From Alphaproteobacteria bacterium (lineage in GTDB: Bacteria > Pseudomonadota > Alphaproteobacteria > Rickettsiales > VGDC01), in contig JAKUPQ010000002.1 of NCBI GenBank assembly GCA_022450665.1, forward strand, positions 15,826 through 79,825: 64,000 bases of DNA, written 5' to 3'. A program made the translations under genes and the position numbers. The notes beneath the pieces were generated by a model, which saw only the letters and a program-made list of their open reading frames with translations, searched no databases and had not been told where the DNA came from. Positions 25,313 through 35,318 of this stretch are shown here, piece after piece. Every line of letters begins with the position of its first letter. Position 1 is the stretch's first letter.

Positions 25313-26083
25313 CTATATGGTTTGACCTGTTTTAACCCGCTGGCGCGGTAACGTGCTTGCCGGATCTTGTGTGGCCGAGCCTGTTGGTGGCGCATTTGCC
25401 ATAGCACTCCGCAGTGCTGGTGTAACCGATGAAACATCGATTCCTTCAACGGGAGGGGTCTTTGATGGAGCGCGAGCCGATTGTTGTTCGGGTGTGGTGT
25501 AGCTGCCACGCATGCGTTGCCCTTCTGGCGAACCTTTCAAAATGTCGACAACTTTCGACATAGCCGCCTTTACTTGCGCATAAGAATTTTTTAACCCAGC
25601 AAGAGTAGATTTGTTATCGGCTATCATTCCTGGAGCCTCACCAAAATCCATTCGTACTGGTCTTCCTGTGGCTTGTGCGCAGGTTATTGCATGATTCATC
25701 GTTGCCTCTGGTGTATGGCCTTGCTGATAGCTGTTTGAAGGTAACGGCTTTTGACCAGACTCTCTCAAGCGTTCATATTCTGGCGTTGCTTGCAATACAG
25801 CATTCATGTCAGCACGTGCAGCTTGTGCTGTTTTAAATACCTCCATTAACCCGCCAATGTTGGAATGCTCATCAACAATCAGGCCTCTCACGCCATTCAC
25901 ATTCAAACTCACTGGCCGGTGGTGTTCTTGTGCCACGGTAATCGCTCGTTCCATTGTTTCATTCACGGAATTGGCGTGGGGAAATGCATCCGAAGGAATC
26001 ACTCCAGAAGATATATTTGAACTTTGCTCGGCTTTTGGCTTGCTTAAGCCCGCAAATTCAGCGATTTTACCCAAAAGAGACAT
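25313..26083 (-). CDS. Hypothetical protein with an internal ~70-aa tandem repeat and a Pro/Ser/Thr-rich tail
   Basis: 256-aa ORF with an ATG start. Repeat 1 (aa 41-110, NETMERAITVAQEHHRPV...) aligns with repeat 2 (aa 126-195, EATMNHAITCAQATGRPV...). I recognise no family. Confidence 0.5.
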   Translation of the reverse strand: MSLLGKIAEFAGLSKPKAEQSSNISSGVIPSDAFPHANSVNETMERAITVAQEHHRPVSLNVNGVRGLIVDEHSNIGGLMEVFKTAQAARADMNAVLQATPEYERLRESGQKPLPSNSYQQGHTPEATMNHAITCAQATGRPVRMDFGEAPGMIADNKSTLAGLKNSYAQVKAAMSKVVDILKGSPEGQRMRGSYTTPEQQSARAPSKTPPVEGIDVSSVTPALRSAMANAPPTGSATQDPASTLPRQRVKTGQTI

Positions 26084-29035: not shown

Positions 29036-29187
29036 CGTCGGCACATGCATAATTGCTTCCCTGCCAAATGTCAAGTGGTGCAAAAACCTGCAATATTGCA
29101 ATAAACCCCTTGACGTGAGCTTGTTTGAAGGGTAAAAAACACGCCTCATATTACTAATTCATACGCTTGAAGAAAAAGGTGCTTATC

Positions 29188-29490
29188 ATGGCTAATCGTT
29201 GCGAACTGACCGGTGTTGGCGTGTTAACAGGAAATAACGTTTCTCACGCAAATAATAAAAGCCGTCGCCGCTTTTTGCCGAATGTGCAAAATGTGTCTTT
29301 GCTTAGCGAGGCTTTAGGAAACCCAGTTTCCTTGAAAGTAACTGCTGCTACACTGCGTACTGTTGAGCACAACGGAGGTCTTGATAATTATTTACTGACC
29401 ACCTCCAACAACAAGCTTACGGTTAAGGCACAAAGCATTAAGCGCCGCATTAAGCGCTCGCTGGCTGCAAAAGAAGAAAAAGCTGCGTAA
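29188..29490 (+). CDS. rpmB: 50S ribosomal protein L28
   Basis: [34 protein letters not shown]. The start was moved to the Met at 29188, which is preceded by AAGGTG. Confidence 0.93.
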
Positions 29491-29514
29491 TAAGCGCATA
29501 CATATTAAGAAAAG

Positions 29515-29540
29515 AGCCAGCTTCGCGCTGGCTTTTTTTG
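29515..29540 (+). terminator. Rho-independent terminator after rpmB
   Basis: Stem AGCCAGC / GCTGGCT with loop TTCGC, followed by a T7 run. Confidence 0.75.
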
Positions 29541-29613: not shown

Positions 29614-30645
29614 ATGGAATTTGCCACTCTCTATTTAAAGGCCATCTATTTAAACATTGCGGATGTCACGCAGCGTCTCAATTGGATGTATCTGCTTACT
29701 GCATTAGCTGCCGCATTGCTAAGCTACCGATTATATTCGGGTGAAAAGCTTTCCATTAAGTCTTTCTTATCTTATGCGTTTCCCAAAGGCAGCCTAACTT
29801 CAAAATCTGCTCGTATGGATTACATTATTGTATTCTTTATGCCATTTTGGATCGCTGTCCTCGTCTTTCCTTTTGCTATATCTGTGTTAACTGTCGCTGA
29901 AGCACTATTGGGGGGGCTTAATTATCTGCTGGGTGAAAACGAATCCCACGATGCGGGTATAGTAGGCATGGCGATATATTCCTTCTTTTTATTCATTGCT
30001 TACGATTTCGGCCAATTTTTTTCTCATTATCTCAATCATCGAATATGGTTTTTATGGGAAATGCATAAAATTCATCACTCTGCTGAGACCATGACGCCAG
30101 TTACTGCCTATCGTTTTCATCCGATGGATCTTTTATGGACAACCGTTGTCATCGCTATTACCACAGGAATATGTCAGGGATTTTTCCACTGGCTGTGGAA
30201 CATGGAGCCTCAGTTATATAATATATTAGGCCTGCAGTTCGGAATTTTGATTTTCTACCTTGCCGCATATAACTTGCGTCATAGCCACGTGTGGCTGCCA
30301 TACCCAAAACCCCTTATGCATGTTTTTATGAGCCCTGCACAACATCAGATTCACCATAGTGTAGCAAGAAAGCATTGGGATAGGAATTTTGGCTATATGT
30401 TCAGTTTTTGGGATTGGATGTTTGGTACAATTTATATACCTCAAGAGCGCGAGCATTTAACCTATGGTCTTGGCAAAGAAAGCGGTGAATATCAGAGCTT
30501 GCCCCATATATATGTTTTGCCCTTCACTAAGATAGGCAACAGAATGAAGAAAATATTTGTAAAAAGTGATTCCAAAGAGCGTGCATCTAAGGCTAGTATT
30601 GATCAAAGTTTTGATGATATTTCAAGCAAACGGAATGAAACATGA
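29614..30645 (+). CDS. Fatty acid hydroxylase / sterol desaturase superfamily membrane protein
   Basis: Four or more N-terminal TM helices and three His boxes: HYLNH, HKIHH(S), and HQIHHS, with LRHSH between them. Confidence 0.8.
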   Translation: MEFATLYLKAIYLNIADVTQRLNWMYLLTALAAALLSYRLYSGEKLSIKSFLSYAFPKGSLTSKSARMDYIIVFFMPFWIAVLVFPFAISVLTVAEALLGGLNYLLGENESHDAGIVGMAIYSFFLFIAYDFGQFFSHYLNHRIWFLWEMHKIHHSAETMTPVTAYRFHPMDLLWTTVVIAITTGICQGFFHWLWNMEPQLYNILGLQFGILIFYLAAYNLRHSHVWLPYPKPLMHVFMSPAQHQIHHSVARKHWDRNFGYMFSFWDWMFGTIYIPQEREHLTYGLGKESGEYQSLPHIYVLPFTKIGNRMKKIFVKSDSKERASKASIDQSFDDISSKRNET

Positions 30646-31499
30646 AATACCTATTTTTAAGTTTACTGTTAACGGCAGTAAATATAGGCATTGCCGCATC
30701 CCCTGCATTGGCGCAAAATTCTGCAGAAAATTCTCAATCTCAGGCTGCTAAAGTTCAACCACCGGTGTGGATTGAAGAAATGACGTGGACTGAAATAGAT
30801 GGGGCGTTAAAGCTCGGGTATACAAATATAATCATACCGGCAGCGGGAATTGAGCAGAACGGCCCTCATATCCCACTTTATAAGCATCGCCTGGTAGTTC
30901 GTAATAATGCAGAAAAGATTGCGCGTATATTGGGCAAAACACTCATTGCACCGGTGATCGATTTTGTGCCCGAAGGCAACATCGAATCCCGCGAAGGGCA
31001 TATGAATTTTGCCGGTACAATATCCATGCCAGCTAAGGTGTTTGGAGATATTATTGATTATACCGTGCGTAGCCTTTCCCAACATGGGTTCCGACAGTTT
31101 TATATTATAGGCGATAGCGGAAGCAGCCAGCAGGCACAGGAGCAAATTGCGAAATCCTTGCGTAAAAATGATTATGAAGCCTTCCATATTGGTGATTACT
31201 ATGCCAATAAAGCGCAGGAAGAATTCTTAGGAAAACATGGGTTTGATGAAAAGAGCATCGGCGGTCATTCCGGCCTGCGCGATACTTCAGAGTTTATGCT
31301 TGTGGCGCCTATGGAGGTACGTAGTAAATTGCTAGGTGTTGTACCTAAAGACAAGCTTTATCAATATGGCACATGGGGCAATACAGCAAAAGCAAACCCA
31401 CAGATAGGGCATATGCTATCGCAAATTAAAGTTCAGGCCGCAGTAAAGCAAATTTGTGAAGATACCAACATCAAATCCAAAGCATGTCATACACGTTAA
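30642..31499 (+). CDS. Creatininase-fold (PF02633-like) protein with Sec signal peptide and a divergent metal site
   Basis: Signal peptide MKYLFLSLLLTAVNIGIAASPALA. Family blocks IPAAGIEQNGPHIPL and GGHSGLRDTSEFML. The ATGA at 30642-30645 overlaps the upstream stop codon. Confidence 0.65.
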   Translation: MKYLFLSLLLTAVNIGIAASPALAQNSAENSQSQAAKVQPPVWIEEMTWTEIDGALKLGYTNIIIPAAGIEQNGPHIPLYKHRLVVRNNAEKIARILGKTLIAPVIDFVPEGNIESREGHMNFAGTISMPAKVFGDIIDYTVRSLSQHGFRQFYIIGDSGSSQQAQEQIAKSLRKNDYEAFHIGDYYANKAQEEFLGKHGFDEKSIGGHSGLRDTSEFMLVAPMEVRSKLLGVVPKDKLYQYGTWGNTAKANPQIGHMLSQIKVQAAVKQICEDTNIKSKACHTR

Positions 31500-31537: not shown

Positions 31538-31614
31538 TGGTGCACCCGGAGCGATTCGAACGCCCGACCCCCAGATTCGTAGTCTGGTGCTCTATCCAGC
31601 TGAGCTACGGGTGC
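31538..31614 (-). tRNA. tRNA-Arg (anticodon ACG), CCA encoded
   Basis: The reverse complement GCACCCGTAGCTCAGCTGGATAGAGCACCAGACTACGAATCTGGGGGTCGGGCGTTCGAATCGCTCCGGGTGCACCA folds as a cloverleaf. The acceptor stem is GCACCCG/CGGGTGC and the anticodon loop is CTACGAA. Confidence 0.93.
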
Positions 31615-31796
31615 ATTGGTTTGTTAACCAGAATGTAGAAGCTAGTCATCTGAGCATAAAATACAAGTGTTTTTTTGGTTTTAAGCGCAATTTGTTGGCT
31701 TGAGTGGCTTTTTATCCTTTTTTCTTTTGTTAAATTCTGTAATCTAGCGGCAATAATTTGATATACGCTATATTTAGCCGTGGCTGGAGAGTATTT

Positions 31797-32192
31797 ATGA
31801 ACACTGGAAAGAATATCCGCAGTTTGTTGTTAGCGCTTATGGTAAGCGCGGCGACAATGGGCGCGGCACATGCTCAGGCCGTGAGTTATAAAGATACGCC
31901 GCTAATGGTGGTGCGCTTTAACCAGGAGCGGGTATATTATCAGCAGCAGCTTTATAATGCGGTATCGCGTGCATTAGAGGCCAAGCCAGATGTTCAGTTT
32001 AGCATTATTTCATTAGTGCCAGAAACGCAGGACAGAAGCTATAATAGGCGCATGCAGGATGAAGCGCGGCATAATACTGGCTTGTTTGTAGCCAATATGG
32101 TGAAAATGGGGTTTCCTAAAAACCGCATTCGCATAGCCTATCAAATTGGCCCCAGCATTGAATCCAATGAAGTGCATATGTTTGTGGAATAA
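31797..32192 (+). CDS. Hypothetical exported protein
   Basis: Signal peptide MNTGKNIRSLLLALMVSAATMGAAHA. About 131 aa, followed by a strong terminator. I recognise no family. Confidence 0.5.
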   Translation: MNTGKNIRSLLLALMVSAATMGAAHAQAVSYKDTPLMVVRFNQERVYYQQQLYNAVSRALEAKPDVQFSIISLVPETQDRSYNRRMQDEARHNTGLFVANMVKMGFPKNRIRIAYQIGPSIESNEVHMFVE

Positions 32193-32557: not shown

Positions 32558-34438
32558 TCAATGCATATGTTGCAATACCGTGGCTTTTTCATCCTCGCTT
32601 ATCGTGCTTTGCCCATGCGGCGTTTTTTCCCATATATGTGGATTCACCATCAACTGCCATAGCGCCTTGAAACTGGCTGCAGAATGGAGCAACCAATAAA
32701 CTGGAAAAGCAAATAGAGCCAGTGTCATATCCTTCCAGCCATAGCGACGGATGATAACACTGGCAAATACTAAATGTGTGATGCTTCCGAATAGTAAATT
32801 CGCCAGTGAAATTACATATACCCACTGCACTAACTTGGGGTGATGAAATTCAATTGCGCCAAAAAACCATAATCCACTTAATATCCATAAAATAGGTGCG
32901 GATAAGAATACCAGACAGGGGCCGCCAATAAAAAACTGGAAACCCCAGAATGCGGTGAAATCAAGCTCTCGCATTAGCTGCAAGGGGTGGCGCATGTGTA
33001 CCAGCCATGTTTGCATATAGCCGCGAATCCATCGCACACGTTGATTCATCCATACATTCAGCTTTATTGGTGCTTCTTCTGCGGTGAGTGAGTCCAGCAT
33101 ATCGGTTTCGTAGTGCTGCAGTGCCAATCGTATTCCTAAATCGGCATCTTCGGTAACATTATATGGATCCCATTCGCCAATCTCACGCAGTTTTTGTAGG
33201 TGAATATGGTTGCTGGTACCACCCAACGGAATGGGGATATTCATGCGCCGCAAACCGGGCAGCATAAAATCAAACCATGCGGCGTATTCAATGGCAAACA
33301 AACGTGTAAGCAAAGAATGATTACGGTTGTAGTAGTTCAAACGTGCTTGCAAGCAGATGACATGAGGTGGTTGTTTGCTGAACCAATAAACGGCTTTTTT
33401 TAGTTGCTGAGGGTCGGGAATATCTTCTGCATCATAGATAGTTACATATTTTCCACGGGCAAAATGCAGGGCATAGTTGCAGGCTTTGGGCTTGGTTTGT
33501 GGCAGTGAGTAGGGGACATGTATAATTTCATATCCGCTATGAGGCTTTAGTTTTTTAATGGCGTGAATAGTTTTGTAGTCCTCTCGTTCTACGATCAGCT
33601 TGATGTCCAGTTTGGATTTAGGGTAGTCCAGCGCATCGAGTGCTTGTAGAAGCCGTGGCAAGGTTTCTGCTTCGTCGTGCAAAGGAATCAGCACTGTATA
33701 GATTGGTAAAGATACCTCGCTGGTAGGGAGGGCATCGGCCGTAATGTATTTGCCGGGATGGTAACTTTTTCCCAGCAAAAAAAGTTGGCATTTTAATAGT
33801 ATAGTCGAGAAATAAAATATATTGAGCGAGAGGAAGGCGCCCAACATGGTTATGATAGGGTAATACATAAACGCGACAATGAAGGAGAAAACGAATGCGG
33901 CGAGCCAGAGTTTTTGCGATAAGGTAATAACGGAGCTTGCGGATTTATGTGGCATGATATTTTTTAAATTCAATCGGCTATGAGTATCAAGCTGCTCGGA
34001 AAAATGGGTGTCGATATGCCAGTAGATGTCATAGGGTGAGGTGATAACAAAATCCACATTATCTCCATAGCGCTGCTGCGCCCACTGCATTAAGGCTTCG
34101 CTTGGGTCGCTGGTGGCAAGAACCACAGTGTTGTTCTTTTTTGTAAACGGCGCGGCCTTAAAACGAATATAATCATTACAGTCTTCTTTGCGCTGCAGTG
34201 TGCTATCGGCAGGTGTATGATGCAAATTCACAAATGGTAGGCGATAATGCTGCGCGATGGCCGTGTATAGTCGCAAAATACTCACATGCCCTTGCGTTAG
34301 TAAAATACGTCCCACGCGCTCATGCGTGGTTTTTTGGATGGCCAGTGCTTCATCTAGCATCGCTTGATCGATCAATTCTTGCGATAGAAGAATTTGGCCT
34401 ACAGGGATGATGGGAGTGGAGGCGAATATTGCAGTCAT
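32558..34438 (-). CDS. Processive family-2 glycosyltransferase (membrane EPS synthase) with an N-terminal T2SSE_N/MshEN-like domain
   Basis: The N-terminal ~145 aa resemble a GspE-N/MshEN domain ([53 protein letters not shown]). GT2 motifs follow: [29 protein letters not shown] and QRVRW. There are multiple TM helices. Confidence 0.8.
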
Positions 34439-34439
34439 A

Positions 34440-35318
34440 TTAAAACTCTTGCCATAACGAAATGATTACGCCTTCGCCGCTTCCGGTGTTGCGGGCTTTC
34501 GTGTGCATAAATCCGCCAAATTGAATGCGTTTGTTCGGGGCGAATCTATATACCAGTGAAGCCTGCGACTTTACCAGATCATAATCATTTGCAAGGGTAT
34601 TAGGATTGGCAGGGCTGTTATCGTTCTGTGCGCGAAGGGTGGTGAAGTTCTGAAGCAACAACATGGTGTTATCGCTCATTGTTAAGCCAAGGGTTGCATC
34701 GGATTTCAATTGATCCTTCCAATCTCCAAAGCGCTTGCGATAAGCAAGGTCAATAAGTACAAAATGGTTGCGATTATACAATGTGAAATTATAACCGAGT
34801 TGCAATTTTAGTTCGGCATCAAAATTATCGGTTCCACTGCGCGGGGTAGAAGCATCGGCATAAAAACTTGGAAGCTTAATGAGCGGTTGTACGGAAATGA
34901 CGGTATCACGATTGAGCCATGTGCCTTGCCATAGACGGTGGCGGATAAAAAATTCTGTGTCGGCAAGGCCATAATTGGTGGCAGTTTCGCGCTGCACTGT
35001 ATTCGATGTAGCGGTATAAAATTGTTTTTCGGTAGATACTGCATGAATAAATGCATTGCCACCCAAGGTGGTGTCATCTTCCAGCCCATATTCTACATAA
35101 CCATTCCATTCCCATTTAGTAAAATTTGGATGGGCAATGGCGTTTCCATTGTCATCTATAAAATTATTGCTTGAATAATAATTAATGCTGTTGGCACTAA
35201 ACCATGTGCCTTTTTCCCGTGTCCATGCGCTGTGGGCAGGGGCAATATTAGCAAAAATAAAAAACGCCGCTATTAGTAGTAGAGCGGCGTTTCCTTTAAA
35301 TCTTTTAATAAGCGACAT
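34440..35318 (-). CDS. Outer-membrane beta-barrel protein (putative polysaccharide porin partner)
   Basis: Signal peptide ...FANIAPAHSA, alternating amphipathic beta-strand pattern rich in aromatic residues, and a terminal ...SLWQEF (C-terminal Phe). The stop codon is 1 nt from the GT2 start. Confidence 0.65.
   Translation of the reverse strand: MSLIKRFKGNAALLLIAAFFIFANIAPAHSAWTREKGTWFSANSINYYSSNNFIDDNGNAIAHPNFTKWEWNGYVEYGLEDDTTLGGNAFIHAVSTEKQFYTATSNTVQRETATNYGLADTEFFIRHRLWQGTWLNRDTVISVQPLIKLPSFYADASTPRSGTDNFDAELKLQLGYNFTLYNRNHFVLIDLAYRKRFGDWKDQLKSDATLGLTMSDNTMLLLQNFTTLRAQNDNSPANPNTLANDYDLVKSQASLVYRFAPNKRIQFGGFMHTKARNTGSGEGVIISLWQEF

Follow-up and report, generated by a model that had tools for sequence, protein, structure and literature searches.

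We describe here a pair of genes in a 64,000-nucleotide (nt) stretch of alphaproteobacterial DNA from contig JAKUPQ010000002.1 (this whole stretch is called the window below, and gene coordinates refer to it). The first gene encodes FAH, a membrane protein of the fatty acid hydroxylase superfamily (the product of the open reading frame, ORF, at 29614-30645), and the second encodes CRE, a probably exported protein of creatininase fold (the product of the ORF at 30642-31499). The best overall explanation of our observations, to which we give a probability of about one half, is that FAH and CRE are complementary halves of a single enzyme system of the inner membrane, in which an oxidation is coupled to a hydrolysis and the metal site of the creatininase fold has been rewired. 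That the two proteins form one functional unit is, taken by itself, highly probable. The narrower idea that they oxidise and then hydrolyse a membrane lipid is tentative, at somewhat less than even odds. Homologous loci from other genomes are designated by L-numbers and representative proteins by P-numbers.

Gene arrangement and conservation of the pair

Both genes lie on the forward strand and encode proteins of 343 amino acids (aa) (FAH, a predicted membrane di-iron oxygenase of the PF04116 superfamily) and 285 aa (CRE, with a rewired active site). As the original prediction had described, the two ORFs overlap in the ATGA at 30642-30645, forward strand, where the stop codon TGA of FAH overlaps the start codon ATG of CRE. 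The identical 4-nt overlap recurs in loci L093, L110, L007, and L017, and such an arrangement implies translational coupling of the two genes. On the 5' side, a terminator-like hairpin (29509-29539, forward strand; a 13-pair stem followed by a T run) separates them from an rpmB-like gene (29167-29490), and on the 3' side a tRNA-Arg(ACG) gene, itself outside the system, lies on the opposite strand (31538-31614). FAH and CRE therefore constitute an isolated two-gene unit.

Linkage of the two genes extends well beyond the window. Within the 80 loci most similar to it, a choice that biases the linked fraction upward, 24 encode FAH and CRE as a single polypeptide of about 600 aa and 8 have FAH immediately upstream of CRE (9 with the window). 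The top 150 representative clusters include 44 fusions, 43 of them in the order FAH-CRE and one in the reverse order CRE-FAH (P0323). In a neighbour-joining tree of the CRE domains, the FAH-free proteins fall mainly into one large clade (Gemmatimonadota, Vicinamibacteria, Pseudohongiella/Woeseia, and Betaproteobacteria), and fused and adjacent forms interleave in the rest of the tree (Alphaproteobacteria, Methylococcaceae, Planctomycetota, and Bdellovibrionota), which points to repeated fusion or fission. The residue at position 213 of CRE also differs according to linkage: Arg is found in 31 of 33 FAH-linked members compared to 13 of 48 FAH-free ones, where Ser or Thr mostly occurs. ORF clustering around the 80 loci, together with twelve Pfam-annotated contexts, revealed no gene other than FAH that is conserved beside CRE across lineages; the recurring neighbours reflect lineage synteny (rpmB, a DEAD-box helicase, prfC) or are clade-specific partners. 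The original prediction had depended on the two genes being conserved together, and the pair is indeed adjacent or fused in many lineages, and co-evolving, as shown below.

Several variants of this arrangement were observed. P0029 (Methylomarinum sp. Ch1-1, 383 aa), annotated as a creatininase family protein, starts in the middle of a fatty acid hydroxylase domain (…NLRHSHIWLSY…SPAQHQIHHS…) and probably represents a fused gene that is truncated or whose start was mis-called. Divergent fatty acid hydroxylase-like ORFs, matching the FAH of the window at E 1e-13 to 1e-18, occur near CRE or a fused gene in L026 (3028-3966, reverse strand), L019 (5635-6582, forward strand), and L003 (4100-5110, reverse strand); in L026, this ORF and an FAH-free CRE with the reading ADHGG are convergent. 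Tandem CRE-CRE proteins, in which a single chain carries two creatininase-like domains, account for nine of the top 150 clusters (P0241, P0242, P0243, P0244, P0245, P0259, P0296, P0313, and P0339). Creatininase is oligomeric, and these tandem proteins may hard-wire a dimer.

Family, fold, and export of CRE

CRE matches the Pfam family PF02633 with an E-value of 1.6e-27 and 96.9 bits (threshold 31.3) over profile positions 1-237 of 238; the Pfam assignments expected for the two proteins, PF04116 and PF02633, both score above their gathering thresholds. An AlphaFold2 model of CRE, computed with 25 homologues, reached a predicted local distance difference test (pLDDT) score of 88.3 and a predicted template modelling (pTM) score of 0.82. 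When it was searched with Foldseek, the only significant matches in the Protein Data Bank (PDB) were creatininase-family structures (1J2T/3A6x, 3NO4, and 3LUB), with template modelling (TM) scores of 0.58-0.76 and about 19% identity. In the model, CRE is a three-layer α/β protein of creatininase fold.

Family membership and the database names of the homologues (creatininase family protein or creatinine amidohydrolase, next to a sterol desaturase) might suggest that CRE is simply a creatininase, MftE, or formamide hydrolase of the ordinary kind, encoded by chance beside an unrelated gene of the sterol desaturase family. However, the equivalog models for creatininase proper (TIGR04448, 58.9 against a cut-off of 235 bits), MftE (TIGR03964, 48.2 against 172), and IolN (NF041098, 31.5 against 245) all fail, three of the four metal ligands invariant in the family are replaced, CRE is predicted to be exported, and the fusions in both orders together with co-evolution exclude chance adjacency. 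We consider this explanation very improbable.

The predicted Sec signal peptide of CRE spans residues 1-24 (30642-30713, forward strand; MKYLFLSLLLTAVNIGIAASPALA followed by QN), with its hydrophobic peak at residues 10-15 and its end at an ALA/QN site. The segment of the homologues that corresponds to this leader is a transmembrane linker in the fused proteins and carries a lipobox, LAAC, in Gemmatimonadota. The export proposed in the original prediction is therefore probable, and across the whole subfamily CRE is predicted to be secreted, lipid-anchored, or transmembrane-anchored, and never cytoplasmic. In the clade of the window, CRE is also extended at its C-terminus by a segment containing two conserved cysteines (QIC…KP..C.R, residues 272-282, window 31455-31487), which is absent in other clades and would be compatible with a periplasmic disulfide.

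The active site of CRE

We mapped the active site of CRE onto creatininase from Pseudomonas putida using sequence-to-structure, profile-to-PDB, and profile-to-profile alignments. For comparison of the ligands we also aligned ten canonical family members, all plasmid-derived, from Thermus, Tsukamurella, Haloferax, Natrinema, Clostridium, Burkholderia, Pantoea, Rhizobium, and Alloyangia, and the Paracoccus creatininase. Six residues are invariant in these ten proteins, namely the E, H, D, and H of the metal site followed by H178 and E183 (P. putida numbering). For which of these residues binds which metal, we follow the assignment reported for the creatininase structures.

CRE keeps just two of the six, Glu71 and His209. 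The first region, EQNGPHIPLYKH (residues 71-82; 30852-30887, forward strand), retains Glu71 at the position of Glu34, and has Asn73 in place of His36 and His82 in place of Asp45, the latter preceded by an invariant Lys81, so that Lys-His replaces x-Asp. In the second region, G157-D158-S159-G160 (31110-31121, forward strand), Ser159 occupies the position of the ligand His120 and Asp158 that of the canonical Gly ahead of it; in the model, this GDSG sits between a strand (152-157) and a helix (160-175). The third region, HSGLRDTS (residues 209-216; 31266-31289, forward strand), aligns with the catalytic block H-x-G-x-x-E-T-S, where His209 corresponds to the catalytic His178 and Asp214 is a conservative replacement of Glu183. 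Compared to the ligand set of the Pfam family, E-x-H...D...(G)H(GGN), CRE therefore matches at Glu71 only, with N73, H82, and S159 elsewhere.

The original prediction of altered metal ligands largely stood, since the retained Glu and the replacements of His by Asn and of Asp by His were all recovered and three of the four family-invariant metal ligands prove to be replaced. Its reading of the segment IIGDSGSS had to be refined to place Ser159 at the His, and Glu122, which it had included among the ligands, is specific to creatininase proper and not family-wide. The register of the second region deserves comment: phmmer introduces a one-residue gap that puts D158 at His120, whereas ungapped MAFFT and hhalign alignments put S159 there. 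We rejected the former because hhalign and MAFFT agree and because a plasmid-borne sister group, which reads GDHGG, aligns its His with that of the canonical NGHGGN.

These replacements are not sporadic. In 120 homologues collected by a word-seeded search that imposed no motifs, N73 and H209 are present in all 120, H76, K81, and D214 in 117 each, H82 in 116, S159 in 115, D158 in 113, and E71 in 112. Almost no variation at these residues is seen in the 80 genome loci either, where the invariance of positions 69-76 is partly by construction, as these belonged to the retrieval pattern. Since the rewired set is nearly invariant in the 120 homologues collected without motifs, the replacement of the ligands is, on the alignments, a conserved signature of the subfamily and not decay. 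The conserved polar constellation of CRE comprises E71, N73, H76, K81, H82, H120, D158, S159, H209, and D214.

The subfamily is also widespread. A CRE profile run against 1.84 billion representatives (clusters at 50% identity) retrieved 572 clusters at E ≤ 1e-30, approximately the size of the subfamily, and 6927 at E ≤ 1e-3, approximately that of the wider family. A genome scan found it in at least 595 species-level genomes of at least five phyla, the carriers among the matches listed being Alpha-, Beta-, and Gammaproteobacteria, Gemmatimonadota, Acidobacteriota (Vicinamibacteria), Planctomycetota, and Bdellovibrionota.

The Ser at position 159 raises the alternative that CRE is a metal-independent serine hydrolase, GDS/GDSL- or GxSxG-like, which would cleave an ester or amide bond in a lipid modified by FAH, with Ser159 as nucleophile, His82 or His209 as base, Glu71, Asp158, or Asp214 as acid, and Asn73 in the oxyanion hole. 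Several features would fit such a role: Ser159 replaces the canonical ligand His within a strand-turn-helix elbow, the motif is GDSGG, GDSLG, or GDSFG in most members, two canonical ligands have given way to Asn and Ser, which are poor transition-metal ligands, and the residues that formerly converged on one metal ion would now be Ser, His, and Glu. In addition, D158 and S159 are changed in three of the four relatives that lack FAH (see below). Nevertheless, position 159 toggles to His in the Xanthobacteraceae homologues L026 and L073 and in the plasmid sister group while D158 and H82 stay constant, which fits a ligand or hydrogen-bonding role better than an obligate nucleophile, and the GxSxG motif lacks a conserved second Gly. 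Foldseek matches of the model to serine hydrolases are at noise level (E 0.04-0.17, TM about 0.25), and those to SGNH and α/β hydrolases (E above 0.03, TM about 0.25) were rejected as support. We find a serine hydrolase possible and rather doubtful, and slightly more doubtful still the scenario built on it, in which a metal-independent Ser159-His-acid CRE, linked or fused to a membrane di-iron hydroxylase, would make up a hitherto unrecognised two-sided pathway of envelope-lipid remodelling, with oxidation on the cytoplasmic and hydrolysis on the periplasmic side, in hundreds of diderm species.

The site of CRE may thus be a remodelled metal site or may bind no metal at all. A rewired single-metal site is the most likely of these from the alignments, because E71, H82, and D158 are constant and position 159 toggles between Ser and His. 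As the sister group has His at 159, the ancestral ligand composition Glu/His/Asp/His would have been kept there at shifted positions.

Loss of FAH and decay of the CRE site

The clade to which the window belongs, defined by the synteny rpmB, (FAH) CRE, a small secreted ORF, rpmJ, a family-2 glycosyltransferase gene, and the ATP synthase F0 genes, offers a direct comparison of CRE with and without its partner. Combining Pfam-annotated contexts with the CRE alignment for eight loci, and scoring FAH at the locus, we observe that all 12 key residues of CRE are intact in each of the four loci with FAH (the window, L110, L093, and L085), whereas each of the four loci without FAH deviates: E71M in L081, H82N/D158N/S159N in L083, H120N/D158N/S159N in L109, and E71N/K81A/H82R/D158E/S159G/D214E in L108. 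A tblastn search for remnants of FAH in the FAH-less loci gave nothing significant. The downstream synteny (carbonic anhydrase, sigma factor) is common to the FAH-less L109 and the FAH-bearing L085, so that L109 must have lost FAH independently of L081 and L083. Furthermore, wherever one of the 120 homologues deviates at E71, K81, H82, or S159, it belongs to this clade. Of the three independent lines that favour a functional unit (adjacency and fusion, phylogeny, and co-evolution), this last is the strongest, and the pattern of loss with decay is what ties the rewired residues, as far as comparative evidence goes, functionally to the presence of FAH.

The FAH-less CRE proteins of the clade are full-length and otherwise conserved, so the scaffold evidently persists once the site is relaxed. 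This persistence could be taken to mean that CRE is not an enzyme but serves FAH from the periplasm as a ligand sensor, a gate, or a subunit for assembly or regulation, with a pocket that would bind without turnover: the scaffold would be valuable even after the loss of E71, H82, D158, or S159, the canonical catalytic metal ligands are mostly gone throughout the subfamily, and sensor domains are also typically fused to membrane proteins. However, the catalytic H209 and the HxGxxDTS block are invariant, the pocket is conserved as in enzymes, across phyla and also in FAH-free clades, and stand-alone secreted or lipoprotein forms of CRE, which suit an enzyme, are common. A purely non-catalytic role is therefore unlikely in our view.

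FAH, a predicted membrane hydroxylase outside the characterised groups

FAH matches PF04116 with an E-value of 5.9e-21 and 75.7 bits (threshold 31) over profile positions 3-132 of 132, and 2473 homologues were collected. It carries the complete eight-histidine motif (H138/H142, H151/H154/H155, and H244/H247/H248), distributed over His box 1 (HYLNH, residues 138-142) and His box 2 (HKIHH, residues 151-155), both within 30025-30078, and His box 3 (HQIHH, residues 244-248; 30343-30357), which lies within an invariant SPAQHQIHHS block; all three are on the forward strand. In alignments of 16-17 homologues, the histidines of the boxes as well as H169, H223, and H254 are invariant, and H225 nearly so. 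The three His boxes recognised in the original prediction are accordingly those of the fatty acid hydroxylase superfamily, and FAH is predicted to be a di-iron, O2-dependent oxygenase.

Sequence and profile searches of FAH against the PDB gave no match even at an E-value of 10. The best NCBIfam match is the model of OlsE (NF052566), which covers FAH residues 127-310; with 44.4 bits compared to an equivalog cut-off of 475, FAH is not an OlsE orthologue. The N-terminal region of about 120 residues, which is conserved, lies outside this match, and a NLRHSHxWLxYP block and the SPAQHQIHHS box are distinctive of FAH. By these profile scores, FAH belongs to the PF04116 superfamily and yet to no characterised orthologue group.

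Membrane topology

The two fusion orders bear on the topology of the pair. In the FAH-CRE fusions, one hydrophobic segment lies between the K/R-rich tail of FAH and CRE, at the place of the signal peptide of the split form, and in the reverse fusion the C-terminus of CRE continues straight into the N-terminus of FAH. The hydropathy of FAH shows a Lys/Arg-rich loop after the first helix and an acidic loop before the His-box helix, as expected from a positive-inside pattern, and the helix pattern of a fusion model fits five transmembrane helices of FAH and one linker. All of these features fit a single topology, in which FAH would be N-out/C-in, with its His boxes and di-iron centre cytoplasmic, and CRE would be periplasmic. 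Cytoplasmic His boxes agree with what is generally known of the superfamily.

Proposed function

We propose that FAH would use O2 to hydroxylate or otherwise oxidise an amphiphile resident in the membrane, acting at the cytoplasmic face, that the oxidised amphiphile would reach the outer leaflet, and that CRE, secreted in the window and transmembrane- or lipid-anchored elsewhere, would then hydrolyse an amide or ester bond of this molecule, or open a ring in it, on the periplasmic side. The centre of CRE would no longer be the canonical binuclear one but a single-metal site formed by E71, H82, and D158, with H209 as acid/base. Hydroxylation followed by deacylation of an envelope lipid is a plausible candidate for such a sequence.

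Several observations weigh against this proposal, in addition to the bias of the 80 loci noted above. About 60% of these loci (48/80) have no FAH within 8 kb of CRE, and the large FAH-free clade keeps an intact CRE site without FAH within that distance, so that the chemistry of CRE does not need FAH everywhere. Next to the FAH-free CRE genes there are often genes for other secreted proteins or, in some Longimicrobiales loci, TonB-receptor/SusD genes. Conversely, the FAH subfamily is also found without CRE, in cyanobacteria. The neighbourhoods are heterogeneous, and we found no neighbourhood, literature, or family match pointing to a substrate or pathway. The model of a fused homologue reached a pLDDT of 73.5 and a pTM of 0.48, resolved no domain interface, and matched in Foldseek through its CRE half alone. 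Finally, the predicted active sites would be on opposite faces of the membrane, which would require a flip or transport step.

Some of the same neighbourhoods suggest a catabolic module, in which periplasmic CRE would attack an amide, lactam, or lactone of external origin (e.g. an acylated signal or a nutrient) by cleavage or ring opening and FAH would oxidise the hydrophobic product within the membrane, or the reverse. FAH-free CRE genes lie beside TonB-dependent receptor/SusD genes in some Longimicrobiales and beside GH88 and α/β-hydrolase genes in Pseudohongiella-like bacteria, and most carriers of the subfamily are aerobic aquatic or marine heterotrophs and methanotrophs. In the lineage of the window, however, the pair is flanked by rpmB and by housekeeping genes, neither transporters nor catabolic partners accompany it, the fused genes usually stand alone, and no regulator or transporter is conserved adjacent to them. 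We regard a catabolic module as being at least as unlikely as a non-catalytic CRE, and retain the coupled oxidation and hydrolysis within one inner-membrane system as the best explanation.

Full-text literature searches returned nothing that links creatininase or PF02633 with sterol desaturase, fatty acid hydroxylase, or a periplasmic location; a match in a zearalenone review was discarded, as it was a citation in the reference list. In these searches we thus found no earlier description of the fusion-prone pairing, the rewired site, and the periplasmic placement. Both families are well known, and it is their joint architecture and the rewired site that, as far as these searches go, appear to be undescribed. 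The name creatininase is almost certainly wrong for the function of this subfamily. Fusions in both orders together with loss accompanied by decay make an unusually clean computational case for joint function, in a well-defined and widespread system rather than a demonstrated new mechanism. As cultured carriers exist (Silicimonas algicola DSM 103371, Thermohalobaculum xanthum M0105, and Roseibium/Labrenzia strains for the fused gene, and Dongia sedimenti for the split pair), the system is experimentally tractable; it could illustrate how the metal site of a metalloenzyme fold is rewired or given up, and could lead to a modification of membrane lipids that is new.

Neighbouring genes and alternative partners

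Downstream of CRE, the window contains a 144-aa ORF with a signal-peptide-like start and no Pfam match (31758-32192, forward strand). An ORF of about 130 aa is found at the same place in L081 (9304-9699), L083 (9208-9597), L093 (5197-5592), and L110 (3642-4037), that is, in relatives with and without FAH. Further downstream, on the reverse strand, a 626-aa family-2 glycosyltransferase (32558-34438), whose relatives show a weak MshEN-like N-terminal match, directly adjoins a 292-aa signal-peptide protein without Pfam match (34440-35318). These two genes, between rpmJ and the ATP synthase F0 genes, are conserved in L081, L083, L093, and L110 and may encode an exopolysaccharide synthase with its outer-membrane partner. 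Upstream, a 256-aa ORF (25313-26083, reverse strand) between gyrB and a methylmalonyl-CoA mutase gene seems, by eye, to consist of two similar halves (…RPVSLNVNGVRGLIVDEHSNIGGL… and …RPVRMDFGEAPGMIADNKSTLAGL…); its position varies, being empty in L081 and occupied in L083 by a 434-aa ORF without Pfam match.

Other partners of CRE were observed in FAH-free lineages. In L094, the gene directly upstream of CRE, which overlaps it by 4 nt, encodes a secreted protein (7318-8004; about 228 aa) that is rich in Gly and weakly matches DUF1554 (E 0.002), and a DUF1554-like gene directly precedes CRE in 16 Longimicrobiales/Gemmatimonadota loci (e.g. L031, L036, L041, L045, and L059). This protein may take the partner role of FAH in that clade. 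In L091 (2566-11638), from a Pseudohongiella-like gammaproteobacterial metagenome-assembled genome, genes on the same strand encode DUF1592/DUF1588 (PSD/PSCyt), DUF1552 (HXXSHH), a 461-aa ankyrin protein, CRE, a GH88-like protein, and an α/β hydrolase; in seven loci, about 10 nt separate CRE from a GH88-like gene downstream of it.

Comparison with known systems

Among characterised enzymes, OlsE, the C4 hydroxylase of ornithine lipids, is the nearest named relative of FAH; it is a bacterial inner-membrane enzyme and its substrate is an amide-containing membrane lipid (PMC12971839). FAH belongs to the same superfamily, and differs by its score and by the additional N-terminal region of about 120 residues. 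A term search of that 2026 review of ornithine lipids (PMC12971839) for a creatininase-like partner, degradation, a deacylase, or an amidohydrolase found none of these.

FAH also shares the HX3H, HX2HH, and HX2HH motifs, the extra histidines, and, by prediction, the multi-span architecture of the wider group that includes Scs7/FA2H, Sur2, Erg3, Erg25, AGMO, and CrtZ. Compared to these eukaryotic and bacterial PF04116 enzymes, it has no fused cytochrome b5 domain and has its own NLRHSHxWLxYP and SPAQHQIHHS blocks.

The creatininase fold supports varied amide and C-C hydrolysis, and ArfB is an Fe(II)-dependent formamide hydrolase of the same family. P. putida creatininase, CrnA (1J2T, 1Q3K, 3A6x), resembles CRE in its fold (Foldseek TM 0.68-0.75, E about 1e-13) and in its Pfam family, and the two share Glu34, His178, and the H-x-G-x-x-(E/D)-T-S block. 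At about 19% identity, they differ in that His36 is replaced by Asn, Asp45 by His, His120 by Ser, Glu122 by Ser or Gly, and Glu183 by Asp in CRE. Moreover, the P. putida enzyme is cytoplasmic whereas CRE is probably exported and partnered with, or fused to, a membrane oxygenase. MftE (a mycofactocin peptidase) and IolN belong to the Pfam family of CRE, which scores far below the cut-offs of their models, and the ten canonical plasmid-derived members all keep the E-x-H/D/H/H/E set that the CRE subfamily does not.

A further comparison is offered by the plasmid sister group, represented by L095 (3908-5907; Rhizobium jaguaris pRCCGE525c) and L096 (3956-6007; a Paraburkholderia fungorum plasmid), which read EQSGP…GKHN…GDHGGYQ and are 32-36% identical to the CRE of the window. 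Like CRE, these proteins are predicted to combine export with a creatininase fold, and have K-H in place of x-D and an equivalent of Asp158. In contrast to CRE, they keep the canonical His (GDHGG) and have Ser at the position of Asn73, and their partner is not a fatty acid hydroxylase but a downstream YncE-like β-propeller, whose gene overlaps the creatininase gene by 4 nt in L095.

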